From Amoebophrya sp. A120 (lineage: Eukaryota; Protista; Dinoflagellata): a stretch of DNA of 64,000 nucleotides. The translations under genes were made by a program, and so were the position numbers. The stretch is from assembly GCA_905178155.1 (NCBI GenBank), contig CAJINV010000025.1:180122-244121 (forward strand), given 5' to 3'. Positions 21,477-63,904 of the stretch are shown here, piece by piece; positions within the stretch are counted from its first letter, which is position 1, and each line of letters opens with the position of its first letter. The notes under the pieces were generated by a model, which worked only from the letters and a program-made list of their open reading frames with translations, did not search any database and had not been told where the DNA came from.

Positions 21477-24400
21477 ATGGGAGGCTGTCAGGGAAAGCAA
21501 GCTGGAACTTCTACCGGCTTCGCCTCTACCAGTGGAGTATCAAATGCAAATATGTCTGGGTCTGGAAGAATGCAAGTTTGTCATGCTTGTCTGGCATGGC
21601 TCTGAAATCTGTAATGCACGTTACCCAAGAGCCCCATTTTTCTGTCATGGAGAAACGCAGTTTGTCATGCAGAATAGGCAAAACCTAGAAGCTCAGAAAC
21701 TTCAACTTGTCATGCTGGGCCGGCACTTGCGGCCTTCTCATGATGCGCTACCCAGCATCACAAATTTCCAGACCTAGACATATTTGCAGTTGATATGGAG
21801 CTGCTGCATCAGGTTCTTTGCCGAGCGGAGGGGGGCCGTTGGAAACGATCGTCGAAACGACAGCGGAGTTTGCCATGCAGAGCGCGCAAGAACAACCCCC
21901 AGGAGCACCAGACCGGGCGTCTCCATTTTCGTCGGATCTCCATCAGGACCGGAGCAGCGGAGCAGGTGGTATAAGGTTTTGAAGTTGATGTAGTTGCCAT
22001 GCGAATATTAAATAAAACTCGAATATAGATCTGAGCTTGTCATGGGTGGTCATATGGAAGATGCGAAGGGGGAAAATGAAAAAAGTATATAAATCAAATT
22101 ATATTTCAGATCTCCAGAGGTTGACCTCCGAGGCCAGTAAAAACGGTTCGCCTGCACCAGATCATGGAATGATGAACATGCGGCAAGAACCCTGCGATTA
22201 TCATCAGGCAGATCCCAAGTTTCTCGACGAGTATGACGAGTACCAGTTCCGCCGCGAGCAGTATTACAATGAAAAATGCCCCCACCCCCGAACTTGAAAG
22301 CATTTGTATTGCAAATCTTTCCAAATGAAACATTAGCCCTCTTGCGTGTATCAGCATCATAGATTTCCGATCGTGAATAGCAAAAAATTGTATTGCAAAA
22401 GATCCCAGCAAGAGCGGTGCTTGTCATGCAAGCGATGCGAAACACGACTAGAATCTGCATCAGAAAGATTTTTACTCCTTTCATGCATGACAAAAAGCTT
22501 TCATTTGGAAACTTCGCATCACAAATTGTTGCAATTTCAGGGGTGGGGGGCATTTTTCACTGTGATAAGCAGGCTATGATGGCCGTGAAGCACAACTTGA
22601 CGGACCGCTTTCTGCAAGACGAAGAGCAGCAAACTGTTTTCAACAATAGCATCAGCACGGATGACGTTGTGCTCCGCGGTGGAGCTGCCAATGTTTACTC
22701 TAGTACAGCTGGCTCAATACAACCGTCGTGCAGCTACCTGCAGCAGGGGGAATACAACCCGAAGAACCAAAATGATCAAGGTCTTACACAAGAACTACAT
22801 CAGGGATCGGCAAAGACACTGTATGGGGAGCTTTTGCACAGCAGCTACAGCTACCCGAGTCCGACGGAAACTAGTGCGACAAGCGGAATCATGGTGGGTG
22901 CTGGAGGCGTATGAGAGTGCACAACCCCCCCTCCCCCTCCTTTGTGTTGCATGAACAGCAACACAAGCGCTAGCAAAGATGCAGCTTTTGCATGACAAAT
23001 TCCTAGCCGGTTGTAGTGCTGTTTTGGCTTTTGGCATCTGTCATGCAAAGAGTGCTAACAGGCAGATTCTGCCTGTTAGAATGCAAATCTACCTTCTGCC
23101 GCAGAAGGTAGATTTGGGATTTTGCATGACAAATGAGGGGGAGGGGGAGTTGTGCACTGTCATAAGGCGGAAATAATAATTATAACGAGTACTACACGAC
23201 GAACAGCAACAGCGCTGCAATCTACACGGGGACGACAACTAGTCCGTATGACGGCCCAGAGGACAACTACACCGATGAACAACACGAGAATTACTTATCA
23301 AATGTAAAAGTGTCTGGGTCTGGAAGAATGCGCGATTTGTCATGCAGCTTTTCCATGACCCATGAGATCTGGAATGCAGGACCTAGCATGACAGATTCTG
23401 TGCGATCTCTCTCATGCCTATCCTGCATTAGAAACTCCCTCCCGACTTGGTCAAAACTGGACGACGTTGGCAATCTGCCTAGTCGCCCCTAGGTAGGTGC
23501 AGGAAAAGGAATTTTCTGTGTGGGCTTTTTGTGCTTAATTATTCCAACAGGGGCTGCGTCTTTTTTTTCTGCCTTGCCAGCAGAGGTGTATAGAAGATGG
23601 GGGGGCATTGACGGAAGTGGTGCGAGACCTTGGAGACGGAGCAGGCGACAAGAGCGGAAATGCTACAAATCAAAAAAAAAGCTCGCATACACGCGCACTG
23701 TTTAACTGTGTGAAAGGTGTCGGCCCTGATTGACCTGCTGCGGCAGGCAGGTGAATTCGTAGAAGTGCTTCACATGTTAAGTAACGCCCACCGGCCTCCT
23801 AGATTAGTGATGAATTTATATGCGAAAAACAGAAGAGAGGGGCCCAATCAAAAAAAAAAAATCATGCAACACAGATTTTTGCATGTTTCAGATTTAGCAT
23901 GAGAAGTTGCATCGTTCCAGACCCAGACATTTTTACATTTGATATTACTTAAACCACAGCAAAAATAAACCCTACACCAGCAAAACGAGTAGCTACTTCT
24001 ACAACAACGACCCCCGAGATGAAAGCAACACCTGCAAGATGAACTACAGTGTAGCTACCAACAACGCGGATCGACATGGTGAAGCCCCCGCGGCGGGGGC
24101 AAAAATCGCATTAGCAGAAGACAATTCTTATGCATTGCAAAAGCATCGTACTCGTATTGCAATCATGCATTACAAATCCCTTTGCTAAGGAAAATCCGCA
24201 TTACAAATTTTTTTTTCTGAGGCTGAGGAAATTTGTAATGCATTTATACGAGTACGATACTTTTGCAGTTCATGATTCTCGCTCAGCGGTGGAGGCCGAG
24301 AAGAAATGCTCTGTGACCAACGCTATGCAGTGCAGATACGTCTGGGTCTGGAAGGATGCAACTTGTCATGCTAATTCTGGATACTGCAAAAATCTGTGTT

Positions 24401-26373
24401 GCATGATTGCCAAAAGCTGCTCACTTTTGACCAAGCTGAGAGGGGGTTTCTCATGCAGCCGAGGCATGATAGAGGTCGGACAGAATCTGTCATGCTGGGT
24501 CATGTATGACAGACCTCACGCGTCATGGAAAACCCGCATGACAAGTCTGCCAACTTTCCAGACCCAGATGACATGTTTGCATTTGATAAACGCTTTGCTC
24601 GCATTGCTTGAAGAGGAAGATGAGCAATACCAGGTGCAGCATGCCCAGACGGAACGCGAACGGCGGAAAATAAGCGAGTCCTCGGGCATGAAAAGCCAGT
24701 ATGTGCAAGCGCGACCATTTGAGAACGGCGGGGTCGTGCGGAGAGGTACAATGAAATTACTAAATGAAAATTTTGAAAAATTGATAAATGCTGGCGAGTG
24801 ATGAAGATATTCACATGCGCGATAACCCGGCTCATCGAATGAACACATGCACGCTTATAGCATCACACTCCTGACTGTTCTTCACATGCGTTGTATAATG
24901 TCGAAACCAGCAGGTCCCTACATCGATAATATCAATATGGACGACACAGTGGACAGCTACCTGGACAATTCTCCAGCAGTATGAGAGTGCACAACTTCCC
25001 CTCCCCCACATCTGTCATGCAAAATGCATTGCGTCAGCACAGCACTTCCGTTGCTGCAGAAGATGCCATTTCAATGAGGGGGAGGGGGAGTTGTGCACTC
25101 TGATAAGCAGATGCCACCATCGATGAAAGCTTCGTTGCCCCGGACAACAGCGCTGCGTATCCTATGTAAAAACGTCCCCACCCCCTAGTTCGTAGCCACA
25201 TAGCATATGCTTTCTCTTCCCGTCGTAGTTCGTTCTCCTCTTGTTTCCTTTTGTGAAAATTTGAAAATTCTCTGTGCTTTAAGTTGGTCTTTTCCAGTAC
25301 ATAAACACCCCCTAGTTGTATATGCAAATCTGCATGCTCAGAATGTGTGTCATGCGGAGCAGCCCCATGAGAAGCATTTTCTTGTTGTGTTTTGGAATTT
25401 GTCATGCTCCAATCAGCATAATATGTAGTGAGGTCACCGAACGGTTCTAACCGGGGAGTTTTTTTGACATATACCCTGAAAAACGACCGGCAGTTTTCAA
25501 GCGGCCGGAAGCGTTTTTTGACATAAAAGATTTTCAATTATCAAGCGGACGGGGCTTTGCCGTCAAACAAGCCCGGTCGAAAACTATCGACTCGCACTTG
25601 ATAAAACGACGCAGGGGAGCTGGCAAAAGGGGCGCCCTTCTGAGGCGCCCACCGCCTTAGTTTCTGGCGATTTGGGGCGTCCAAAAAGGGGCGCGCAAAA
25701 AACGCGCCCAAAATCAGAACAGCGAAACAGCATGGCACGGCCGCGATTTCGGAGCATTTTGGGCGGCCGCGAAAGCGGCCGCCTTTTCGCCGGTTTCAGA
25801 GCCTGGGAAGCTTTGCAAAAAGCGCCGGCGTGAAAAATAAAAACGCGAAAAAGAAAAAGCGGCCCGCACGCGCAAAGCCAATCCGCATGCTACGGGCCCG
25901 ATTTTTCTTCGCTTTTTGGGCGCCCCCCGCGGCACCTGGATCGGCCCCTTAGCATGGGGGCTGGCTTTCGGAAAGGGATTTCAGGAATTTGCCAAAATTT
26001 GCGACGTTTCCCAAGTGGCCGCCATACCGTGCGGCATAACGTTCCTCACGGTGGTATGGCGAGCCCATAAAAAGCAAAGCCGCAGCCAAGGCGGCGGTCG
26101 GCAAAAAAACGCCCACGACCTCACTACCCCCGCCCCGGCGGCTATATTTGGTAGGCTTGGCCTGTAATGCTTATGCACGAGCTAAAGAGTAGAGGATTAC
26201 ACTACGAGGCCAAACTTTTCATTCGCATTACAACCAAAGCTTGTGGATTTGTCTAGCAAAATTTCCATTTTCTTAGCGCTATAGGGCTATGGGCTGGGGA
26301 CGTTTTTTCTCAGGACACTGCGAGAGGGTTATTCAACTGTGGCGCGTGCCTGTTGAAGCGCATAGGGGAGTGA
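21477..26373 (+). CDS. Spliced gene, hypothetical protein with N-terminal MGGCQGK acylation-like motif
   Basis: Frame preserved across 8 introners, a GT-AG intron 21966-22109 and a probable GC-AG intron 24794-24913; ends ...APDNSAARGLFNCGACLLKRIGE*. Confidence 0.7.
21538..21795. mobile_element. Introner family A
   Basis: Inverted ends, DR tggag. Confidence 0.9.
22262..22567. mobile_element. Introner family G
   Basis: Inverted ends, DR agcag. Confidence 0.88.
22910..23164. mobile_element. Introner family C
   Basis: Inverted ends, DR aggcg. Confidence 0.9.
23296..23944. mobile_element. Introner family A carrying a nested poly(A)-tailed insert
   Basis: Both TIRs and DR ttact present; reverse complement of 15668-15931 apart from the insert. 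Confidence 0.88.
23476..23861 (+). mobile_element. Poly(A)-tailed retroposed module (SINE or 3' end of a non-LTR retrotransposon)
   Basis: Interrupts a family A element, ends ggggcccaatc(A)12; 3' part homologous to 31971-32200. Confidence 0.7.
24129..24274. mobile_element. Introner family B
   Basis: Inverted ends, DR attct. Confidence 0.9.
24324..24588. mobile_element. Introner family A
   Basis: Inverted ends, DR aacgc. Confidence 0.88.
24980..25105. mobile_element. Introner family C, internally deleted (126 bp)
   Basis: Inverted ends, DR agcag. Confidence 0.88.
25158..26317. mobile_element. Introner family D expanded by a nested element
   Basis: Left TIR at 25158, right TIR ending 26317, DR ctgcg; frame restored across it. 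Confidence 0.82.
25423..26153 (+). mobile_element. Helentron/HINE-like element, copy 2
   Basis: Same ends and first about 280 bp as 13447-14254. Confidence 0.7.
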
Positions 26374-27192
26374 GTTGTAAAGATTTGAAGACGTGGCAAG
26401 AACGATGAATCTGAATGTAAATCCAAGTTGTAGAGGATAAATCCAACTCCAAGTAGAGGACGTCGTCTCTTTCGTACGAGAATACAGAAGATACCAAGAA
26501 CGCCATGAAATGCGCACACCATCCTCGCTGAGTACTTTGATACACAATTCACGACGACAAACAAATTCTTCCCGCGGTGGCATTTCCTCCTGTCATCAAC
26601 AACTGGATGGTGATAACGATATTGCAGCTGCTCCGACTCCTTTACTCTGAATCTGAACACGCGTTTGAAATTTCGTCGTTGCGTTCGCCGCAATGAGTAA
26701 TACTCATGCACTTCCCGTGAGTTGATGTGAGGTGGCGGTGCACGACGTGCAAAAAAAAGAACAACAGTGGGAGATGATTGAAGATGATGTTTCATCAGAA
26801 GCAAAGAAAGCAAAGCGGAAGTTGTTGTACTTCATATGAAGGAAGAGTGGACGACGCGACGAGAGATTCAAATAATTGAGAAACAAGATCCGCATTTGTA
26901 TAAAGTTGTACCGATGAACTAGAGGTAGCGACAAACGTGTTGGCGTTGCGATGTGATATACTACCTTTTTGTGTCGTGTACTAAAAATGACCCGTTCATT
27001 CTAGTCGTAGTTCTAGCTGCATTCGCCTTGAAAATGAAGACCGATTGAATTGCTACTTACACTCCTCTCTACTTGCCGGCGAGATTTCGTCCGAAGCAGA
27101 GGCATATCATAAACTTGTGTATACATAGGTAGAAGTACAATTTCAGACTCTACAGAAGTAAATACGATTAAGCTACAAAAATCTTTGAAAAA

Positions 27193-30100
27193 ATGGTGAT
27201 TCTGCACGTGAAGAAGGGTGAGGCAAAAAACGAGTTTCTGCAGGATGTTCTCACCTTACGAGAGAGCACAACTCCCCCTTCCCCTCATTTTTATGTTGGT
27301 ATGAACAGCAATACAACCACCAGCACACGTAGGGCCTTCGCACAACAAGTTCGCGTGCCTACTAGCGTAGTACTGTTCGGGCTTCCAGAATCTGTCATGC
27401 AAATAGTGCCACAAGGTGGCTGCACATGGATTTGGGATTTTGCATTACACATGACGGCGAGGGGGAGTTGTGGACTCTCATACACCTCCGAAACCGTTGA
27501 CCAAGTCCTGAAAAAAACCGTGGAGCTGCACAACATTCGGCTGTATCAAATGCAAATATGTCTGGGTCTGGAACAAGGATGTAGCTTGTAATGCCGCATT
27601 TGGATTCTAAAAATATCTGTATTGCAGGAGCAGCAGAAGAGGTGCATTTTTTGCTACACGGAGGGGGTATTTGTCGTGCAGTATGGCGGGCATCACAAAG
27701 CCGTCACAATAGCTGTGATGCTAGTACATGCATCACAGACATCGCCGGTGATGCAAAATGTGCATGACAAACTCCCAGACCCAGACATATTTGCAGTTTA
27801 TAGGCTGAAAGTCTTGCGACTCGCTGTCTCTTATTCATTGCAAAATTTCTGTCGTACTAATTTCTGTAGAAGTGAGTCATGGCAAATCATATGACATGGT
27901 CTGGTTTCAAGTTCACGCAGTTTGTCATGCTGATCTCGCTTTGGGATTTGCATTTGTCATTTCATTACTGAAATTAGTACGGTAGAAGTTTTGCACCGGA
28001 TGCGTCTCTGCGCGAATTGGGGAAGCACGGACCCCTCCGGCCCGAAGAAACCAGGGGACTGATATCAAATGCAAATATGTCTGGGTCTGGGAGATTGCGA
28101 GATTTGTCATGCTAATCTGGCATGACTCTGAACTCTGTATTGTGTGCCGCGAAGAGCTCCTCTTCCCTGTCATGCAAGAAAACAGTTTCTCATGCGGAAT
28201 ACGCAGCTCAGAACCACGAAAAAAACTTGTCATGCTTGGCAGCGCATTACAGTGAGCTCACTATAATTTTTTCCTTCCTTGCATCACAAGTTTCCAGACC
28301 CAGACACAAGTATTTGCATTCGATAACTGAGCGAAGACACCAACTTTCCGCTCGACGTGAATGCGTATGGCACACCAACCAATCCAGATGAGCACGGGTA
28401 CAACTTCATACGAATTTAAGTAGATTTATTTGTCATGCAAGCAGCAAAGGTTTTTTCTTTCTTTTGCCGCTGCTGTGATCAGTATTTTCGATCTATTTTT
28501 CCACTTGGTGTTTCAGTTTCTGATCTGTATCTGATCCCACCTACAGGTTCCGCACCGGTTGCCCGCCACCTGGCGAGGTAGGCGAAGTGCTGATTCGCAC
28601 CGCGAATGAGTCCGAGCAGGCCGTTGCCCACACCCTGGTACAGCAACGAAAGAATCTTACAAAAGAGATTTGCGAGGAGTGTCTGGCCCAGATGCGATAT
28701 CGTACGTAGAAGTAGCGATATCATGTACGACTACTACTCAAGATCAAGTACAAGTGGCTGGTGTACTAGAAAATCCGAAATGTGGCAAGTGAATTAATTT
28801 CCTTGCGCTGTCAACATACTCATGCCGTGTAGTGTCTATGACGTCGCTTTATTTCATGATGTCGCTTTTTCCTACTATATCCCCGGCGCGGTCATGATCG
28901 CTTACCCGGCGTTCCACAAGCTACCGTTCTTCGATTATGGAAGTGAGCTGGAGTGAAGTTTGTCATCAGGCGGTATTTCGCATGAGAAACCTGGTTTCTG
29001 ATAATTCAAAACTCGCATGACAAAGTTCTTATTCGATTTCAGCTCCATATCATCCCCGTGCGGTTGGAACTGGAAGACAAGGAAGAATTGGATGGACAGT
29101 ACTTCTAATATTACAAGGTTTGATCATTTGATTTGTCATGTGTCTTGTGCATGATGAGGAGGTCTTGTCATGCGGCCGTGCTATGTAAGGATACGTGAAC
29201 GTGAGTGGTATATTTTTCTTTCTTCCTAATGCTAAATCCGCATCACAGGTCCGAGCTTCAAGACGTCCTGGACATTCCGCAGGCAACGATGTGGTTCGCT
29301 GGGAAGGAACTATCCTTTGCAAAGCTATCGTACTCCTGGTACAAATTCATCTTGCAGCCGCGCATTACAAATCTCAATCTCAACATAAATCCGCATCACA
29401 AATTTACATTTCTGATGCTGAAGAAATTTGTCATGCGGTTCTTGCACTAGAGGTACGATATTGCTTTTGCAATGCATAGGAACTCGTGGTCGGCAAGCTC
29501 CTCTCCGACTACGTGGGCAAGTATCCTCAGCAAAAGCATCGTAGCGGTGGTAGTTGCAAGACTGCATGACAGATCTCGTATCTATAGATGAATCAGCAAC
29601 AGAAATTTCCTTTCTGCTTTCGAACGAGATTGTCATGCAATTTATCAATCCCACGGTCGTGCTTTTGCAATGCATAGCCGGAACGAAAAAACCAAGATCG
29701 TGATCAAACTGCAGACCAAGGCTGCGTACCAAATGCAAAAATGTTTGGGTCTGGAATAAAAGGTGGAGCCTGTATTGCGTTGCTTGCATGGTTGCAAAAT
29801 CTGTATTGCGCCAGCGCCACGACTAAAAACGAAAAGCGCGGTGACCTTTTTTTGTCATGAGAAAATGTAGCGCATCACCTTCACAATCACAAGCCTTCAA
29901 GTTGTATTCAGCGGACCCAGATCGATATTTGCGATGCATACTTCGGGCGCCCCGGTGCGCGAGCCGAGGGTGGACGAAAACACGCACAAGGCCATGCTGA
30001 GCTACTACTACAAGAAGCAAGAGTATGGGGGTGTCAGAATCGAAATCGACAAAGTTGAATATTTATAATCAGTCATGCATAAAATGCGACGCAAAAAGTG

Positions 30101-32328
30101 ACTCTATTGCAGAGGACGCTAGGGAGGCAGATTGTAGTCCTGCTAAGGTTCAAGAATTGGGGTGGTGACTAGCATGACAGATGCGAGCTTTTTTGCCCTG
30201 AACAGCACGACAAACTGGCTTCCGATACCGGCAAAATTTGTCATGCGCCGCCTAGAAACTGTGGGTCCAACTGGTATGGATTTTCTACATTACAAGTTGA
30301 AGTTTTTCAGCTTTGTCGATTTCGATCCTGACGCTCCCATAGAGAGGAGGCGAAAAGACTAGCGGAAGACGAGGACGACAGTTACCTGGAAAGCAACTGG
30401 GCGGTATTGTTCGGAAAAATCTCCCCTCCCCGTATCGAAAAGGAAATTTGTGATGCTGGATTTGCGTACACAGATCGCCTTGCATTGCTAAAAGGCCAAG
30501 AACAAACGCAGTCGTGACCTGAATTGCAGGCGATTTGTCATGCTGTTTCCCACTTCGAGTCGCCTCGTGTCATGCGGAAGATGAAAGGCTTTCCCACGCC
30601 TGCCAGAACTACAGTCCGCATCATCTCCTGCCTTCCAGCATGACAACATGAGTTGCGGTAGCAAATCATGCTACACAAATCTTTTTTCCGTAGCCATTTT
30701 GGCTCAAGTTTTTTTTTCCGCGAAGGGAAGAAGTACTTGCAGTACAGATTCGCTGCACTCGTCCGGGGAGCGACGTGTGCTGCGGTTTCGATCTCTATCC
30801 TTGCCCTCGGTCGCCTCCCTTCGCCCCCCGAAGGAGAGGTTCACTTGGTAGAAATCTAACCCTGATGCCTTACACCTCCCGCCGCTAGGATGGACGATTT
30901 AGTCCTCGTCTACGATAAAGACACCCCCGAGGCGGGGCAGTTCGCGCTGAACCTGTACGACCACGCGAAAAAATGGATCGGGTTTTCGGTGCAGGAGCCG
31001 AAGCCGACCGAGCGCACCTCGTTCACGGTGAACGGCGCCAGCATGGGGATCATCATCACCAAAGACGTGTTCAAGTCGGAGTTCGTCACGGACGCGCTGG
31101 AGCTGATGGTGGCGGCCAAGAAGCCCTGCCTGCTGATCCACCACATCGCGGGCAAGACCAACGTGGAGGACGAGATCATGCAGTGCGAGAACGACGACTA
31201 CCTGCGGTACATCCGCAAGGCGCAGACCTGCATCTACACCTTTGACCTGGCGGACCAGTGCCAGGACCACATGATCACGCTGCTGGAGTTCAAGTCCGCG
31301 GACAGCAAGAAGGAGCTCCAGAAGCAGGCCGTCCTCCGGCTCGAGGAGACCCGGGCGGACGTGCTCTTGTTTTCCTCGCGCGTCGCCAAGGGCCGGCTGA
31401 ACGCCGCGGTGCACAGGAGGTACGACTTCTGCCTCACCTGCGCGGTGGAGGACCCCCCGGTGGCCGAGGACGTGCTGAATAAGGTCTACGACATCATGAG
31501 CCGGTACGCGCCGGCGCTGCAGGTCGCGCGCAACCAGGGCGACAAGGCGGTCACCAACGTGCAGCAGCGCACCGCGAACATCCGCGACTCCTTCAACCTG
31601 GTCGTCTTCGCCACGAGGAATTGCTTCGCCACCGACGAGAACGGGAAGGGCAGCGCGGTGGTCGAGGAGGTGAAGGCCGCGCTGGAATCCGAGCTGCAGG
31701 TGTGCATCATCCAGCACCTGTCCCAGTGTCCGGACATCGACGCGGAGATCGAGATATCGAATGCAAAAATGTGTGGGTCTGGAAGAGCCAAACTTGTGAT
31801 GCTGCATTTGGATGCTAAAAAGACCTGTATTGCATGACAAGCAAGAGGATTCAAATTTGGCTACGCGGAGAGGGCATTTGTCATGCTGGAAGCGCATAGA
31901 TAAGCGCTCAGAAAATCTGTGATGCTGTGGCATACATCACAGACAGCATGGATCATGGAGAATTTGCATGGTGACGAAGCAGACGACAAGCGCGGGAATG
32001 GTACAAATCAAAAAAAAAAATGGCATAAACGTGCTCTGCTTAACTGTGTGAAAGGTGTCGGCCCTGTGTAACCTGCTGCGGCAGGCAGGTGAATTCGTAG
32101 AACTGCATCACATGTTAGGCAACATCCACCGGCCTCCTAGCTCAGTGATGAATTTATATGCGTAAACAGAGCGGGGCCCAATGAAAAAAAAAAAAAAAAA
32201 CATGCTACACAAATCTCCGTTTCAGTATGGGGAGGGGGGAGTTTTCATTTTGATTGGCGGACAGCAAGGCTTTGAAGAAGCACCTGGTTGGCGGCGGGCG
32301 GCCGATCGGGTTCCGGGGGCTGAACTAG
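27193..32328 (+). CDS. CFAP298: Cilia- and flagella-associated protein 298 (C21orf59/Kurly) orthologue, spliced
   Basis: Reconstructed MVILHVKKGE...HNIRLKVLRL...ELGKHGPLRPEETRGL...MRGAVMIAYP...MWFAGKEL...LSDYVGKNEKTKIVIKLQ...GAPVREP...MLSYYYKKQEEAKRLAEDEDDSYLESNWADSKALKKHLVG matches CFAP298 family motifs throughout. Confidence 0.92.
27257..27482. mobile_element. Introner family C
   Basis: Inverted ends, DR cacct. Confidence 0.85.
27544..27802. mobile_element. Introner family A
   Basis: Inverted ends, DR ggctg. Confidence 0.88.
28063..28325. mobile_element. Introner family A
   Basis: Inverted ends, DR actga. Confidence 0.9.
29311..29478. mobile_element. Introner family B
   Basis: Inverted ends, DR ggaac. 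Confidence 0.88.
29522..29676. mobile_element. Introner family B (degenerate)
   Basis: Inverted ends, DR gcaag/gccgg. Confidence 0.78.
29727..29940. mobile_element. Introner family A (degenerate)
   Basis: Inverted ends, DR ctgcg/cttcg. Confidence 0.78.
30024..30341. mobile_element. Introner family H (TIR core GTCAGAATCGAAATCGAC)
   Basis: Long inverted ends, DR aagag/gagag; homologous to 58702-59011. Confidence 0.88.
30687..30708 (+). other. Complete dinoflagellate spliced-leader sequence (DinoSL) in genomic DNA
   Basis: tccgtagccattttggctcaag is a 22/22 match to DCCGTAGCCATTTTGGCTCAAG. Confidence 0.95.
30890..31754 (+). CDS. Intron-free ORF of the retrocopy; two TIR-like domains; 3'-truncated
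   Basis: About 288 codons with strong GC3 bias; second half YDFCLT...IRDSFNLVVFATRNCF...VVEEVKAAL...VCIIQH follows the TIR pattern; runs into a family A left TIR at 31755. Confidence 0.7.
31755..31970. mobile_element. Family A introner retained in the retrocopy, right TIR missing
   Basis: Left TIR and internal sequence like 913-1175, then switches to the poly(A) module. Confidence 0.85.
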
Positions 32329-33842
32329 TTTGTAGGACAGGGAAGATGCATCTTCTGAAAATCTATGTTTTCAACACTTTTGTTTGTGAAAGAGATGAAG
32401 GTTTGTACTTAAACCTTATCTGCACCAACCTTGTTTTGCAAACAACAAGGCTTAGCTACTTACAAGGATCGGGATAACAATGAGTCAGAAATCAGAACCC
32501 TTTAACGCTCATACCAAAAAGTTTTTCAACAGTGAATACCAATACGGCCACAGCCAGTACCCGAAGTATTTTTTAGAATTGAAGCAAGAAGAACAACTGT
32601 AGTGGGGAACAAATGGAAAACGCAAACAAAGGCAGTCGCAGTTGTAGAAGAAAGATGCGTAGACTAATTCTTCTTCATCGCGTTCTTTTCCTAATTGCGA
32701 TACTCTCCACGACCGGCAAAGAAACTTGAGTCTGAGAAGCGAAAAGTGAATAAACAGGTTTGATGGAAGTGTTTTTTTCAACAAGAATCTTTAAACAACA
32801 ACTCAGTGTGAGTTCCGGTGAAGATCGGATGTGGACTAGGAACCAGAAGTGCTTTTGGCGGGTGACGAGCTGCTGTTCTGTAGTGACGAGATTGAGTTTC
32901 ACCCGTTCTTCCGGCGTCGTAGATAATTCTTTTTCCAAGTGCAACCCCCAGATCGGAGGAAAATTTTTACCACTTTTTCACGGATCTTCGCGGATTCTCG
33001 CGGAGTAGCCGTATGGTCTAGTCAGGTTGCGCCTTATTTTGGGTGAATTTGCTTGCCAGTTTTGCGATGTCAAATAATTTGAACTTGTGCTCACTTGCAT
33101 TGCACAAGCCAGTGAAGAGGAGTTCACCTCCGAGACCTCGTTTCATTCGGTCCGTATTGTCGTTCTTTCGGTTTTTCCTTCCTTTTTAGGTTTACACCGT
33201 CCCACCTCCTCCTTCTATCGTCGCTCGGTTGCGCTGCACATAAGATCCTTCGGGGCTAACCAGGAACATGCTCGGTGTAGTTGACCTGCAAGAACTCGCG
33301 TAAGAAGCAAGAAGTACAACTAGGTACTTATACTTTGTTTCCGTTCACAGCTTCAAGCCCGGCGGGCAAAACCAGCACAAGCGTCTTCGTTAAAAAATGT
33401 CGGTGACAAGAACAGAGGTATGTTCGGTTTTCTTCTGGCATTTTCATCGTACAACAGCGTCTTTGTCGTACAACATGGTTTCGTGATTCGTTGCGCTGCT
33501 AAAAACCGTTCGCTGGAGGAGAACTGCTATGGCACTCTCGTACTTGCCAGTTTGCATTCTTCTACGAATTATTTCCGCTGTTTCAGTCACTACCTCAAGT
33601 CTAGTCATGATCTTCGTTTCATCTTCCTGCAGGCAGCAAACGAACCCAACCCGTTTTCACAATTTTCATATCCAAATCATACTAGTACAACACCTAGCGC
33701 AATCTAGTCACCCTGGACCACTGCGCCAGTTCTTTTTACATACGTACGTCTAATTTAAACTTTGTTTTCCACCAGACCACCCGTTGTAAGTACCACCCTT
33801 CGATATCGATTCAATAAACTTCCAAGTAAACCTCCGCCCACA

Positions 33843-39188: not shown

Positions 39189-41235
39189 GAAAAAAAAAAT
39201 CTTTCCATTTCGAAACTAGGTCCCACACGCTCCCCCTCCCCGGCGAAAACTTTCTCCCTGCCCGCGCTCGGCGACGCTACTGGTTCACTTCAGCCGCACG
39301 GGCTCCATGAATGTGTTGCGGCTTGGGACGGAAGGACACCAGGGCGAGCTCCCTGCCTGCGGCAGCGGGGCCGACTGCGCGGCGGGCCCCCGCTGCGTTT
39401 CCCCTGTTGCAGGCGCCGAGCGATGTACGCGACAAGAGCCCTTGCATGCGAGTGGGAAAGGAAGGCGGGGGGCCCCGAACAACACGGGGGCCCCCCGCGA
39501 GCAGGTGAAAAAGGTGGAGGGGGCCCCTTGGGCACCGGTGGTACAGGCCGGGGGCCCCCCGCGCCCGCGCGGGAGAGAAAGGCGGGGGGCCCCCTTGGGC
39601 GCCCCCGGCCTCCAAAGGTGGAGGCCGGGGGCCCCCTGCGGGCGGGGGAGATTTACCGCGGAGAAGGACGGGGCCCCCCCCCGGCCTCCCTCCGGCGGGC
39701 GGCCCGGCCGGAAGAAGGGCGGGGGCCCCCTGCGGAGGCGGAAGCGCGGGGCCCCCTGCGGACGCGGGATACGCAGCGGGCGGTAAGGCGGGAGGCGGGG
39801 GCCCCCTGTTTCACCAGGCAGGCGGCCCGGGAGAAGGTCGGGGGCCCCCTGTGGAGGCGGAAGGGTGGGGGCCCCCTGCGGACGCGGGATACGCAGCGGG
39901 TGAGGTGGAGGCGGAAGCGTGGGGGCCCCCTGCGGAGGCGGGATGCCCCGCGGGCGGGAGGGCGGGAGGCGGGGGCCCCCTGTTTTCCCCGACGGTATGC
40001 TGGACGCAAAAATAGTAACCCTCATCGTAGCGTCGTCCTTACAAGTCTAGGCCTCAGCGCGTACCGGTCTCAAAAAAAATCTTTCCATTTCGAAACTAGG
40101 TCCCACACGCTCCCCCTCCCCGGCGAAAACTTTCTCCCTGCCGCCCGCGTTAAAGAAGGCCTCTTTACGTAGCTAGTTACTTCTTTACAAAAGGACCCAA
40201 AAAAGGAGACCTAAGGTTCGGGTGTGAATTTCTTCACCCAGCTTCTGTTCCCTTCCTTGAGTTGCTGAGGTGTTGAAGTTTACACCTATGCTCGACTGTG
40301 CAAGAGGGTTTTTGCCTTACCCCTCTAAGGTCTCAGGAATCACGCTGCCACACTGTTTCCAAACCCACGCCGACACTACCAAAAAGACTTTTTGATATAG
40401 AATGAAAAAGCCACAAAGAAGCATGCTGTAGGGGGAAGGGAAAAGGCTTGCAGCTACTCAAAAAGCGCGGCCAAGAATATCAGAGGGCTTGCCTGGGGGT
40501 AGTTTCTGCATAGATGCCGCGCTCGTGTATTTTTTATATCGTAGTAAAGACGTAGAAGAGCAAGGGCGCGATTTGGTCGGCAACTGCCCCCTTCTCTGCC
40601 TTCCTCCAGCAGCAATACTTCCAAAAAGAGCCTATGCACAGCCAACATTCCGCCGCGCCCAGCCATGCATGTCGTGGCACTTCGACGTCCCAAAGGTTGC
40701 ATCTTCAAAACTCACAAGAGTGAAATGAGATTTCCCGACCTTTAGGCTTAGCATTTTAGGCGTGAGGGGCGGGGCAGTGGGCCACTAGGAGGAACAGGTA
40801 CAGAATCACCACCGAAAATGGGAGTGTGCTGCAGCCTTCGCGTTACATTACCACGGTTGTCGACTCCCACGCTCAGCTGGGGTGGAGGCAACCCGGTGGT
40901 GTGACTAGCTGCGTACTGACCAATGTGAGCAACCGTAGCATTGTCGCGAGGAGGAGGGAACAGCAGTCCGGAGACCGGTGGATTCGCAATGCGAGAAGCC
41001 GGAGAAGGGGTCAGACCGCAACCTACAGAACACGAATTGGAACCGCGATGAGATGATGATGACGAGCCTGGATCAACACCATTTCCGATCTGAGGTTGTC
41101 ATTAGATGCATTGCAGTTTTATGTTTGTGCCTATGTATTTAAAAAAAAAAAAATCTTTCCATTTCGAAACTAGGTCCCACACGCTCCCCCTCCCCGGCGA
41201 AAACTTCCTCCCTGCCGCCCGCGCTCGGCGACGCC
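39189..41235. repeat. Three copies of an about 80-bp A-run-headed sequence, the first two enclosing a GC-rich GGGGCCCC palindrome array
   Basis: aaaaatctttccatttcgaaactaggtcccacacgctccccctccccggcgaaaac at about 39189, 40073, 41141; palindrome-rich repeats about 39465-39980. Confidence 0.8.
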
Positions 41236-58310: not shown

Positions 58311-61115
58311 ATGCGTCTCGTCCTCCAGCAAACGGAGGACGGTTCCCGGCACGAGTCGCTCACCACCGGCGTCGCTTGGAGCAAGAACGTATCAGATGCA
58401 AATATGTCTGGGTCCGGAAGAACACAAGGTTTGCCATGCATGTTTTGCATACCTCATGATGCCTGTAATGCACGACCTAGCGTCACAGATATTTAGGAGG
58501 CTTCCTGAAGATGCCTATATCGCATGACAAATGCCCTCGCCGCGTAGCACAGACTGGATTTCTCAATCTCTTCCTGATTTATTGAATACAGATCTTTTTA
58601 GAATCCAAACACAGCATTACAAATTGCAACCGTGTAGACCCAGACATATTTGCAATGCATAGAACGGCAAGCAGTACGAAGTGTATTCCTGCGCAGATGA
58701 TTATGGATGTGTCAGAATCGAAATCGACAAAATCGAAAAATTTGTGATGCATAAAATGTAGGGCAGTAGAGGCCTGTATTGGAGAGCAGGCAAATGACAC
58801 CAATTGTAAGCCTGTTTAGGGGTATGCAATGTGCTGCCAGAGTAGCATGAGAGGAGCGGTCTTCTTTGCCCAAACAGCATGACAGACTCGATGGATCTGG
58901 GTGCTCCCGAAATTTGTCATGCGCCGCTTGGAAACTGAGGCTCCAACTGGTATCGATTTTATGCATCACAAGTTTTTCGATTTTGTCAATTTCGATTCTG
59001 ACGCTTCCATAATGATCAGACCGTGAAAAAGTGGAGCCCGGACCAGGGGCAGCTTCTCGGCAAAGTCACCTATCACAGTGCACAACAACTCCCCCTCCGC
59101 CTCCTTGGTATGGCAAGAACAGCAACACAAGCAACAGCAGGTATGTGACTTCCGCATAAAGACAAATCCGGACGTAGATTGTAGTCCTGTCTGAGCTGCG
59201 GCCCGAGCTTGTCATGCGCAAAGTGCTTCAAGGCAAGACGTGGAAGATTCAGTATTTTGCATTACAAGTGCGGGGGCGGAGGAAGGGGGGTGCACTCTTA
59301 TATCACCGACACCAGCTCCTACTGCACCAGCATCGACCTCTTTGGCGAGGTCTTTGTCATCGGTTTTAGCGATGGGTCGCTCTCGTGGATCCGGAAAGAC
59401 GGGCGGGAGGAGAAGAAAGTCGCAGGGGCGCACCGGGGCGGAATCACTATGGTAAGTAGTATGCTATGATAGCGTGCTTGTATGAAAAATGTAAAGTAGA
59501 CGTCTACCTTTGAAATCTGTCCTGTAGACGACCCCCGAAGACTTCTTGTCCGGGTTCAAAGTTCTGATGCAGCTGTGTAGCTGCGTGATTGATCTTCAGA
59601 AGTAGCACCAGAGCTGTATTTTTACTGATGGCATGCATGCTGGCGCGAGCACGACCCTGAAAGGAAGGACACAGATCACCGTATTTAGATGATAGAAAAA
59701 TCCGACCGTAATTACCTAAAGGTAAGATGGAACTATGAGGGAACCGCAATCGTGTCAACCGGCGAGGTATCCTGGGCAAAAGCAGTATCGTACTAGAACT
59801 ACCAAGTACAAATCACACGACAAATTTCCTCAGTTTGTAAAGTAAGATTTGTATATGCGGACTTACCTCAGGAACGATAATTTGTAATGCATTACCGCGA
59901 TGATCAGTACGACTGCAAAACTTTTGCAATGCATACGACGACGGCAGCTGCAAGATATGGAGCAAGTCGGGAATGGTGAGATCGACGTTTTCGCAGACCC
60001 ACCCCATCTACGCCGCGAGTTGGTTTTCGGATTCGCAATCGTTGCTGTATTATGCTGTGCAAAAGTATCGTACTCGTATTGCGCTCATGCATTACAAATC
60101 TTGTTCTTAAGCCAAGTCCGCATTACAAATTTTCTTTCTCATGCTGCGGAAATTTGTAATGTGTATCAGTTCAACTGGTCCCGCGGTTCAACAATGTACC
60201 TACCAGTTCAATAACGCCCCGGGGCCTAAATATCCTAGAACAAACAGGGCATTTGATATGCTCGGCGCCAAAAAAATATGCGGATCGATGCAGGAAAAAG
60301 TAGGGGGCCGCTCCTGACCCAAAGGTACGCTCCTGATCCCAGTGGTACTTAGTCGATCCGGGGGGACGGGTAGGACCTGACCCCCGGTTCGGGTCTGTAC
60401 CTGCAATGCCGCAGCGCCGTCGTTTTAGATGGTAGGTGCTGCGGCACAGCGTCGCGCACCGTGATGGGCACCACAGGCCTCACATCTACTGTCTTCACTA
60501 CAGAAAAAAGCAGCCACGACTGCGCTCTGTCCTAGCGTTCGCCTGCTTTCTGTTTGAAACCAGCGCCACGCGCACGGCTTCAGTCTTCGCGCGCCCATTC
60601 ATCGGAAGTATCGTTCCTAAATCGTGTGGCCGCCAGCCGTCCCACCGTAACCAATAGTCGCGCAGCGCTTCGTGCCTCACAAACCAAAATCGCGCGCGCG
60701 CGCGCCAAGAGAGTCGCTTGCGCCTGTCGTGTGGCCCTTCCGCTTCTTTCATCGCGCGCCGCGTCCCGGTGTTTCGGCCCACCTCAGGCACTTCGTTTTT
60801 TCTCATTTCGGCGCTCCGCCTGCACACGTCGGCGCAGCACTGTTTCTGCGCAGTTAGTGTTGCCCCGACCTTCTCCATTGCGCATACTTTTTGCGCCATA
60901 TGGTGCCCGCAAGATATGCTCTGCCGCTCATCGAGATTACTTTCAACCTTTTCCCGCTCTTTTTTTTGGGATTTGCTACGAGTAATACGTATGGCTCTGC
61001 TCTTTTTCGTATGCCCGGAACCTTCACGAACTAGTTCGTGAACTGGGGTACACTCTCGAACCGATTCAAATGCATTTATACGAGTGCGATACTTTTGCAG
61101 TTCATATGTATTGCA
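58311..61115 (+). CDS. IFT80: Intraflagellar transport protein 80, N-terminal WD40 exons; remainder not found in window
   Basis: MRLVLQ...HESLTTGVAW...VYSCADDQTVKKW...[60 protein letters not shown]...IYAASWFSDSQSLLY matches the IFT80 N-terminus. Confidence 0.9.
58390..58661. mobile_element. Introner family A
   Basis: Inverted ends, DR gaacg. Confidence 0.87.
58702..59011. mobile_element. Introner family H
   Basis: Long inverted ends, DR atgat. Confidence 0.9.
59071..59302. mobile_element. Introner family C
   Basis: Inverted ends, DR tcacc. Confidence 0.85.
59768..59935. mobile_element. Introner family B
   Basis: Inverted ends, DR cgagg/cgacg. Confidence 0.83.
60051..61106. mobile_element. 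Introner family B split by a nested 0.9-kb element
   Basis: Left part 60051-60161, right part 61069-61106, DR tgtat. Confidence 0.85.
60162..61068. mobile_element. TG...CA element with 4-bp TSD (aatg) and degenerate terminal inverted repeats
   Basis: tgtatcagttc...gaaccgattca inserted in family B sequence with aatg duplicated. Confidence 0.65.
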
Positions 61116-61671
61116 TATGGAAGTGCCACCAGGTGGGAACGAAATCAACATGCAAAGATGCAGCAAGTGCTGCCAAGACAAACGGCAAAGGCGGGTGAAC
61201 AGGGGTCTTTCTCCGCCGGATGGACGACTGAGCCGCCGGGCGGACGGCTTAGCTGCCTCCAAGCGGCTGCTCCGCTTCGCGAGTTCTTCGATAGGGAGCC
61301 CCCTCAACCATAGGGGGCTCCCTCGTCGACAGGGCGCCCCCTCCGTCACAGGGAGCCCCCTCCCTGCTGGGGAGCCTTCTCCACCATAGGGGCCCCCCTC
61401 CTCGATAGGTCGCCCCCTCCGTGGTAGGGAGCCCCCTCCTTGCTAGAGAGCCCCCCCCCACCATAGGGGGCCCCCTCCTCGACAGGGCGTGCCCTCCCTC
61501 ACGGGGCGCCCCCTCTTCGATAGGAAGCGTCCGCCGCCATTGGCGGCCCCCCCCCCTCTAGGGTGCCCCCCCTCCGAGTCGACTCCCCGGTGGTTAGCCG
61601 ATGGTCCGACGGCGAGCCGACACACCGGCGGCTTGCCGACTCCGCGGCGGCTAACTGATAGTCCAACGGCG

Positions 61672-62670
61672 GGTCGCCGGCCGGTTGGGCTGGGTCGCCG
61701 GCCGGTTGGGTTGGGTCGCCGGCCGGTTGGGTTGGGTCGCCGGCCGGTTGGGTTGGGTCGCCGGCCGGTTGGGTTGGGTCGCCGGCCGGTTGGGTTGGGT
61801 CGCCGGCCGGTTGGGTTGGGTCGCCGGCCGGTTGGGTTGGGTCGCCGGCCGGTTGGGTTGGGTCGCCGGCCGGTTGGGTTGGGTCGCCGGCCGGTTGGGT
61901 TGGGTCGCCGGCCGGTTGGGTTGGGTCGCCGGCCGGTTGGGTTGGGTCGCCGGCCGGTTGGGTTGGGTCGCCGGCCGGTTGGGTTGGGTCGCCGGCCGGT
62001 TGGGTTGGGTCGCCGGCCGGTTGGGTTGGGTCGCCGGCCGGTTGGGTTGGGTCGCCGGCCGGTTGGGTTGGGTCGCCGGCCGGTTGGGTTGGGTCGCCGG
62101 CCGGTTGGGTTGGGTCGCCGGCCGGTTGGGTTGGGTCGCCGGCCGGTTGGGTTGGGTCGCCGGCCGGTTGGGTTGGGTCGCCGGCCGGTTGGGTTGGGTC
62201 GCCGGCCGGTTGGGTTGGGTCGCCGGCCGGTTGGGTTGGGTCGCCGGCCGGTTGGGTTGGGTCGCCGGCCGGTTGGGTTGGGTCGCCGGCCGGTTGGGTT
62301 GGGTCGCCGGCCGGTTGGGTTGGGTCGCCGGCCGGTTGGGTTGGGTCGCCGGCCGGTTGGGTTGGGTCGCCGGCCGGTTGGGTTGGGTCGCCGGCCGGTT
62401 GGGTTGGGTCGCCGGCCGGTTGGGTTGGGTCGCCGGCCGGTTGGGTTGGGTCGCCGGCCGGTTGGGTTGGGTCGCCGGCCGGTTGGGTTGGGTCGCCGGC
62501 CGGTTGGGTTGGGTCGCCGGCCGGTTGGGTTGGGTCGCCGGCCGGTTGGGTTGGGTCGCCGGCCGGTTGGGTTGGGTCGCCGGCCGGTTGGGTTGGGTCG
62601 CCGGCCGGTTGGGTTGGGTCGCCGGCCGGTTGGGTTGGGTCGCTCGCCGGCCGGTTGGGTTGGGTCGCCG
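61672..62670. repeat. Near-perfect 21-bp minisatellite, about 47 units
   Basis: (gccggccggttgggttgggtc)n. Confidence 0.95.
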
Positions 62671-63904
62671 TCAGGCGGAGGGCCCCGGGGCCATTTTGTA
62701 GGTTAAAAATTGGCTATTTTTTTTCTGTTTTCGAAATAGTGCGACCGCTATGGGCCGTCGTAGCGCAGGGGCCGGCGTCGTGTTCTTCGTCGGTAAGCTT
62801 TTGGCCCTGCCTTTGCCATGGAGCCGATGGCCGGCCGGCATTGGCCTTGCCCGCTTTCTGGCGCCTGGCTAGCCTGGCAGCAGCGTAGCACGCAGGGGGC
62901 GGCTTCCATTTTATTCCGTGCCCCGCACGCCGGGCACGGCGGGGCTTCGGTTTTGAGAAGGTTGCCAAAGGCCCGGGCCCATTCTCCCTCGTTGTGTTTC
63001 AGCCGTGGCCTTTTGGTGTGTTTCTCGTCTTCCCGATTCGTCTCTCTTGGCGTTGCCAATTGGCGTCGTGGGGGCACAAAATGACGGGGCCCCGGTGCGC
63101 GGTTGGAATGGGGGCAGCGCCGGGCGCCGGGTCGGCTCGCTCCGTCGTTGCGTGCGCCGGATCCGGCCTGCAATATTTCGAAAGACCTTGGGGAGGGGCG
63201 CGGGGTATGTCCGAAGGTATGGAAACGTCCTTTGTCACCGTCGGCGAGACCTTCTAAATTCTGGCTAAATTCGGGACCATAGGGATTTCCCTCATGTTTT
63301 CCGCGTTTCGCTTCTAAATCTTGGCCGCGGGGCCATTCCGGCAGGCGCAACCCGGGTCAAACCAGAAAAAATTTAGAAGGAAAAATAGACGCCGGAAATA
63401 GAATGAAAAATAAAATGAAAAATAGAATGAAAAATAGACGCCCAAAATAGAATGCCAAAAATAGAACAAATTTAGAAGGTCATCCGGGACGGTCTTCTAT
63501 TTTTGAAAATTTAGAAGGTTCTCCGGCAAGGCCATTGGCTCTGTGGGATTTGGTTGAAGGCTAAGGGCCTCGCCACTTCCTTTGCTCAACAGGACCCGGG
63601 GCGCCGGGCCTGTGTTGGGTTTGCTGGCCTGGCTTGCAAGTTTGGGCGGGCCGGTCCTGGGTGGTTTTGTGGTTGCCAAATGTTTCGGCGCAAGCTTCGC
63701 GGGCATGTTGTGGTGGGGGCTTTGTTGTTTGCCGGTCGCGCCCGGCTCGTTGGGCCTCGTCGGGGCAAAGGGGCCCCTGCCCCGGTGCCGGCTCCTGTGC
63801 CTCCAGCCGGCGCCGCCGGCTTGCTGGCGGCCGTGCTTTTTCAAAAATCAGAAAAAAAATAGAAGAAAATTAAAAGCACCAACCGCCCCGGGCCCTCCGA
63901 CTGA

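Follow-up and report, generated by a model that had tools for sequence, protein, structure and literature searches.

A spliced-leader-capped first-exon copy with a retroelement tail inside a CFAP298 introner of Amoebophrya sp. A120

Results and Discussion

An insert of 1.5 kb (30667–32216) in an introner of the ciliary gene CFAP298 contains, between two exact copies of a 16-bp target-site duplication (TSD), a complete dinoflagellate spliced leader (DinoSL), the 5' UTR and first 288 codons of another gene, the left part of a second introner, and the 3' tail of a poly(A) retroelement family. Its origin is attributed, with a probability of about 0.65, to 5' transduction in two steps: insertion of the tail into the first intron of the parent gene, then retroposition of the trans-spliced transcript of that gene. 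The DNA analysed (the window) is a stretch of 64,000 nt from the assembly GCA_905178155.1 (contig CAJINV010000025.1, 180,122–244,121); positions are those of the window and all features lie on its forward strand.

Composition of the insert

The left TSD (30667–30682) was identified by an exact 16-mer match to the right one (32201–32216); the 16-mer has only these two copies in 64 kb, and the motif is present once in each of four other aligned introners of family G, to which the host element belongs. It is followed (30683–30708) by four extra T residues (30683–30686), likely untemplated, and the 22-nt DinoSL (30687–30708); the latter is the single match in the window even when five mismatches are allowed (30688–30708 plus the T at 30687). 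The next segment (30709–31754) is the copied 5' UTR of the parent (181 nt, up to the ATG at 30890), its first 288 codons and one further base; the frame remains open until the TGA at 31835–31837 (315 aa), homology to the parent stops at codon 288, and no Pfam family was found for the 288-aa ORF. The left 216 nt of an A-family introner (31755–31970; introner alignments, motif matrix) end within the target motif of the tail family, and the inferred 5-nt direct repeat of this introner is 31750–31754, i.e., the end of the copied coding part. The 5'-truncated tail (31971–32183) and a poly(A) of 17 nt (32184–32200, read directly) complete the insert, the A17 directly abutting the right TSD. The anatomy claimed in the earlier note (TSD, DinoSL, 181-nt UTR, ORF, left part of an A introner, A17, surrounding G introner with GGCGG) was thus present in the sequence throughout, and so was its signature of target-primed reverse transcription (TPRT), the 16 exact bp of the TSD lying within the 7–20 bp expected for TPRT and being accompanied by A17.

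An SL RNA gene at 30687–30708 was considered and rejected; the leader is followed by the T run of the parent's UTR, and neither a GT donor nor an SL intron is present. The window therefore holds a complete 22-nt DinoSL without an SL RNA gene, and such retrocopies could be mistaken for one; the available text on the Amoebophrya genomes gives one complete 22-nt DinoSL-like sequence per genome, taken as the putative SL gene (PMC7789003).

Parent gene

The parent, identified by ORF clustering and located outside the 64 kb of the window, is P0005, a gene model of 5129 aa with the source label Amoebophrya sp. A120. Residues 1–288 are identical to the insert at 287 of 288 positions; P0005 continues with KCQD precisely where the A introner of the insert begins, and the base preceding this introner is A, as the Lys codon requires. 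About 6% of the coding sequence is present in the insert. As judged from its sequence, P0005 is a giant dynein-type motor-protein gene model, of which the insert copies the predicted first exon: dynein motor domains were found in fragments 88–91% identical to its later part, and the part scanned with Pfam (the first 700 aa) gave weak EF-hand matches only. The long N-terminal part of P0005 is without a Pfam family; a relative of 65% identity (P0007) has PA14 and WD40.

The contig comparison covered four of 14 sequencing runs, two of the four being without pieces here, and 16 of 1447 pieces were listed. A 2156-nt contig of the DNA-like run X1 is DNA of the parent locus; it consists of 1166 letters unlike the window followed by a gapless match to 30707–31696 with two differences in 990 nt. 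Since the match begins at the AG that ends the leader, the SL is absent from the parent's DNA; the DinoSL of the insert is joined at the trans-splice AG of the parent, and the RNA origin that had been proposed for the copy is borne out. The retroposition is recent, as measured by the same two differences.

From the UTR to codon 269 the parent's DNA is intron-free (990 of 1048 nt, 31697–31754 being outside the contig), so that over 30707–31696 there is no cis-splicing to explain. A processed (spliced) retrocopy was therefore discarded, the parent having no intron to lose in this region, and the suggestion that upstream introners had been removed before retroposition has to be given up for this region; the search for a parent locus proposed with it succeeded, and the introners expected in the parent and absent from the copy were not there over 30707–31696. 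Nor are uninterrupted coding stretches of this length rare: with a published coding-sequence density of 1.42 introns/kb (PMC7789003, available text) an intron-free run of 865 nt has a chance of ~0.29, and several stop-free frames of 600–720 nt (putative exons) occur elsewhere in the window. The parent contig of X1 stops flush at 31696 and the summed depth rises at 31667–31696; this could be due to an introner in the parent or to one more 5'-truncated copy.

In the run X3, the left junction is bridged by a 1380-nt contig that starts in the CFAP298 exon and continues across the left part of the G introner, TSD and SL as far as 31754. This contig has four additional differences (31174, 31177, 31249 and 31486), all synonymous and absent from both the window and X1, which suggests a second expressed haplotype or a paralogue of the parent.

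Host gene and host introner

Two exons of the host gene were assigned to CFAP298 by Pfam PF11069: 29946–30020 (E 4.6e-06, profile 38–62) and 30344–30404 (profile 63–82), the latter ending in the GGCGG direct repeat (30400–30404) and confirmed by a spliced joint in X3; the last coding exon is 32261–32328 (to TAG; read directly, X3 contig depth 237). One exon of the gene gave no CFAP298 match. Between them lie the left part of the G introner (30405–30682; alignment with other G copies), with the left TSD at its end, the remainder of the insert, and the right TIR with the right GGCGG repeat (32217–32260, repeat 32256–32260; comparison of G copies, X3 joint). The entire 1856-nt G introner is spliced out of CFAP298 RNA despite the insert: the joint 30399→32256 was observed in X3 (RNA by the tool's guess) at a depth of 237 vs ~8.6 for the intron; among the contigs listed for X1 it did not occur. 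The raw RNA runs X12 and X13 gave 0 reads on 30100–32500. The claim of introner excision at the RNA level thus holds for this element, and such removal has already been published (PMC7789003, available text). As excision proceeds with 1.5 kb placed 39 nt from the right end of the element, recognition rests on the ends; a second parasite can insert into introners and be tolerated there.

Tail family and its target sites

A second, older tail copy with A12 (23480–23861; start approximate, set by eye) is located in a reverse-oriented A introner (23296–23945) and matches the module of the insert at 23631–23861 (86% over 231 nt). Four further copies (L001–L004) were retrieved from metagenome_contigs with one exact 32-mer as probe; all are from one assembly, which carries the same introner families. 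Thus the 3' module is indeed the 3' end of a retroelement, and its description as an unrelated module is superseded. Five copies were aligned and share a core of ~170 nt before the A tail, being divergent upstream; L002 was omitted, as its core is split by an additional insert of ~380 nt. L002, L003 and L004 have TSDs of 15–19 nt and element lengths of ~790–940 nt; for L001 no 5' end could be located, and the second window copy has at most a short TSD. Between the left TSD and the element, the 5' junctions of L002–L004 show short re-copied target or stuttered sequence, from which it follows that the reverse transcriptase (RT) of the tail family can jump templates.

A tails are present in all six copies examined (two in the window and L001–L004), and all six end 3–4 nt before the introner motif GC[AT][AT][GC][AG]CA. 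In G introners the site used is near the right end and homologous among L002, L004 and the present insert; in A introners a homologous site is shared by L001 and L003, and the second window copy sits at the motif of the opposite strand. Insertions into exons are removed by selection and repeats make up 37% of the window, so that location in introners is by itself weak evidence for targeting; the repeated use of homologous introner bases is the stronger point.

No Rfam match (E 0.1) was obtained for L001–L004, whose 5' ends are perhaps incomplete, and on 23400–33000 Rfam gave only two weak miRNA-like matches, on another introner. Folding of the tail RNA gave z −0.74 for the copy of the insert, with two-sided change in one of 46 consensus pairs, and so does not establish a conserved structure; a search of viral_contigs found no tail copy. 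As neither an RT nor an endonuclease was found, the family was not placed in any clade.

Inner junction at 31970

The A introner is an abundant TIR element with 5-nt direct repeats. The segment 31755–31970 matches ten other A copies of the window over about its full length, is 74–81% identical to the best of them, and breaks off where the aligned complete A copies continue to the right TIR. The target motif together with the upstream AA has one sense-strand place, element position 207–216, in seven of seven complete A introners of the window, and the inner junction is at element position 216. A matrix built from six sites without the junction ranked 31960–31970 first (11.1 bits) among 1252 positions of the copied segment, the next being a site in the ORF (10.4); the junction was set as the end of the matrix window, whose columns are those still present there. 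In L003 the order is A-left (aligned to 31755–31970), TSD, 16 re-copied target bases, tail, A13, TSD and A-right, and the final 5' join is at the same GCATG as the inner junction of the insert. Read most simply, the inner junction reflects a plain insertion of a 5'-truncated element into the first introner of the parent. The letters common to both sides are TG (2 nt), as judged against the A consensus, rather than the tgg reported before. An alternative nick at ATCATG, 16 nt before the junction, was set aside as a misfit to the family motif.

Origin of the insert

According to the favoured 5' transduction, the tail would first have inserted, 5'-truncated, into the A introner that forms the first intron of the parent. 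The trans-spliced transcript of the parent would then have run into intron 1 and ended at the tail; the introner in this RNA, being without right TIR and repeat, would not have been excisable, and the tail would have made the RNA a substrate of a putative partner non-LTR (LINE-type) RT, with reverse transcription primed at the G-introner target in CFAP298. We infer from these features the tail in the intron 1 DNA of the parent, its role as transcript end and the copying by a non-LTR (LINE-type) enzyme. SINE and LINE tails are described as making RNAs substrates of a partner RT (PMC4494074), and SVA as well as an intronic L1 transcribed from the RAP1GDS1 promoter are documented cases of an analogous route (PMC12593883, PMC13174262; available text in each case). 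In favour of this course are the motif at which all six tail copies end, the position of the inner junction on that site in A introners, the structure of L003, the uninterrupted parent DNA over 30707–31696, the TSDs of L002–L004, which agree with the 16 nt of the insert, and an 83-nt X1 contig (31916–31998) that spans the inner junction with 0 differences and no break at 31970, extending only 28 letters rightward, below the 31-letter rule of the tool. Against it, no listed contig contains both the tail and parent-specific DNA, the TSD implied for the inner site (~8–10 nt) is shorter than the 15–19 nt of four other copies, and the coding-region site scores close to that of the junction. The observed depths of X1 (29.6, 36 and 50.6) fit about equally a tail-bearing parent with the retrocopy rare or absent in X1 (27, 27 and 54 expected) and a template switch with the retrocopy present (38.6, 39.7 and 54), and fit badly a tail at full frequency in both loci (38.6, 54 and 81); 5' transduction therefore depends on a low frequency of the retrocopy in X1.

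In the template-switch reading, which goes back to the earlier note, reverse transcription began on a tail RNA at the G target and, after ~214 nt, the RT switched by way of TG to an SL-capped pre-mRNA in which a complete A introner was still present as intron 1. This reading is rather unlikely, though more probable than the alternatives below; its retroelement end stands, and the switch is judged less likely than 5' transduction. The 2-nt microhomology, the stutter at the 5' junctions of the relatives and the X1 depths are consistent with it, as is an X1 contig (31969–32062, depth 50.6) in which a longer tail copy of identical sequence seems to be joined at 31969; LINE/mRNA chimeras made in this way are described (PMC12593883, PMC13174262), and intron-retaining retrogenes of Symbiodinium were noted earlier (PMC5585692; available text of all three). 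A switch has, however, no reason to hit the DNA target site of the family, which would occur by chance in ~2% (2 good sites × 13 nt/1252), and L003 has the same join from a plain insertion; the forks then expected at 30707 and 31970 are absent from the X1 contigs, although contig cleaning can remove forks. Arrival of the A introner and tail after retroposition, or a later deletion joining 31970 to the tail, is improbable: intron 1 of the parent is outside the contigs listed and the 2-nt microhomology also suits a deletion, but a single pair of TSDs brackets everything, the junction falls on the target motif, and two differences in 990 nt leave little time for an arrival, yet the A part is no closer to its best window relatives than given above. 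An assembly chimera is more improbable still; the poly(A)/TSD junction was masked in the contig comparison and the left junction is absent from the X1 contigs listed, but the 1380-nt contig of X3 bridges the latter, and the 16-bp duplication is exact and at the usual G site of the family, as in L002 and L004.

The readings differ in what they say of RNA processing. With 5' transduction and with a template switch alike, the SL can be added while the first introner is still in place. Only after a switch would the copy record timing: it would demonstrate that a transcript can be trans-spliced before its first introner is removed, but not that other introners had already gone; with the tail already in the intron of the parent the RNA is unspliceable and gives no information on the order of trans-splicing and excision. 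The locus does not date trans-splicing against introner excision, and the copy is probably no fossil of trans-splicing before introner removal.

Relation to known systems

The insert resembles the chimeras of SVA (SVA_F1/MAST2) and RAP1GDS1/L1PA2 in having a sense host first exon before a retroelement 3' end, poly(A) and a TSD, and in the proposed transcription from a host promoter through an intronic element; as far as those chimeras are described in the available text (PMC12593883, PMC13174262), it differs in how the exon was joined, which was read-through into the intron rather than splicing into the element, in the trans-spliced leader at its 5' end, and in that the element is a truncated non-coding tail with an inferred source copy. 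Repeated use of fixed sites in an abundant TIR element is shared with Tx1/Tx1D (Xenopus), Tx1-Mar and SINEU in Mariner-N4_AMi, and the 5' extensions of SINEU-2 that copy part of the target transposon are counted as a likeness; unlike Tx1/SINEU as described there, the targets here are introners excised from RNA, so that genic insertions are tolerated (PMC4494074, available text).

A genomic DinoSL upstream of UTR and ORF is common to the DinoSL-marked retrogenes of dinoflagellates (PMC5585692, PMC12014239); compared with the available descriptions of those, the present copy is 3'-truncated (288 of 5129 codons), has TSD and poly(A) intact, ends in a retroelement tail and is far from its parent. 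For the retrogene machinery, PMC5585692 gives Ty1/copia as a candidate and states that 'direct evidence is still lacking', PMC12014239 mentions LTR as well as non-LTR elements and does not choose between them, and the available text of PMC12014239 and PMC11453091 names no demonstrated mechanism. The host elements agree with the published introners of Amoebophrya in direct repeats of 3–5 nt, TIRs, non-canonical ends and RNA-supported excision; the available text describes no nested retro-insertions (PMC7789003), and here 1.5 kb is nested in one element. In mostly non-subscription literature no prior report of introner-targeting retroelements or of a TSD-flanked SL retrocopy in the lineage was found, and both an introner-targeting family of non-LTR type and a concrete path by which a non-LTR element can yield an SL-capped retrocopy are likely new. 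So young a copy still has its TSD, poly(A) and recognisable tail; it therefore points to TPRT and can serve as a probe for the enzyme. A broader proposal is tentative: the lineage may possess a non-LTR family specialised on introners, which would cut a shared motif, hide in excised introns, be transcribed from host promoters and turn host first exons into SL-capped retrocopies. If true, this family would be a working route to SL-marked retrogenes, for which no enzyme has been shown so far.

Other features of the window

At 39190, 40073 and 41141 three copies were observed of an A run (8–13 nt) followed by the same 65–80 nt, with differing sequence before it and a GC-rich repeat between the copies at 39190 and 40073; these could be serial insertions at one target or the heads of a tandem unit. 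The region 60500–63400, after an N gap, consists of GC-rich short-period tandem repeats with strong strand skew.
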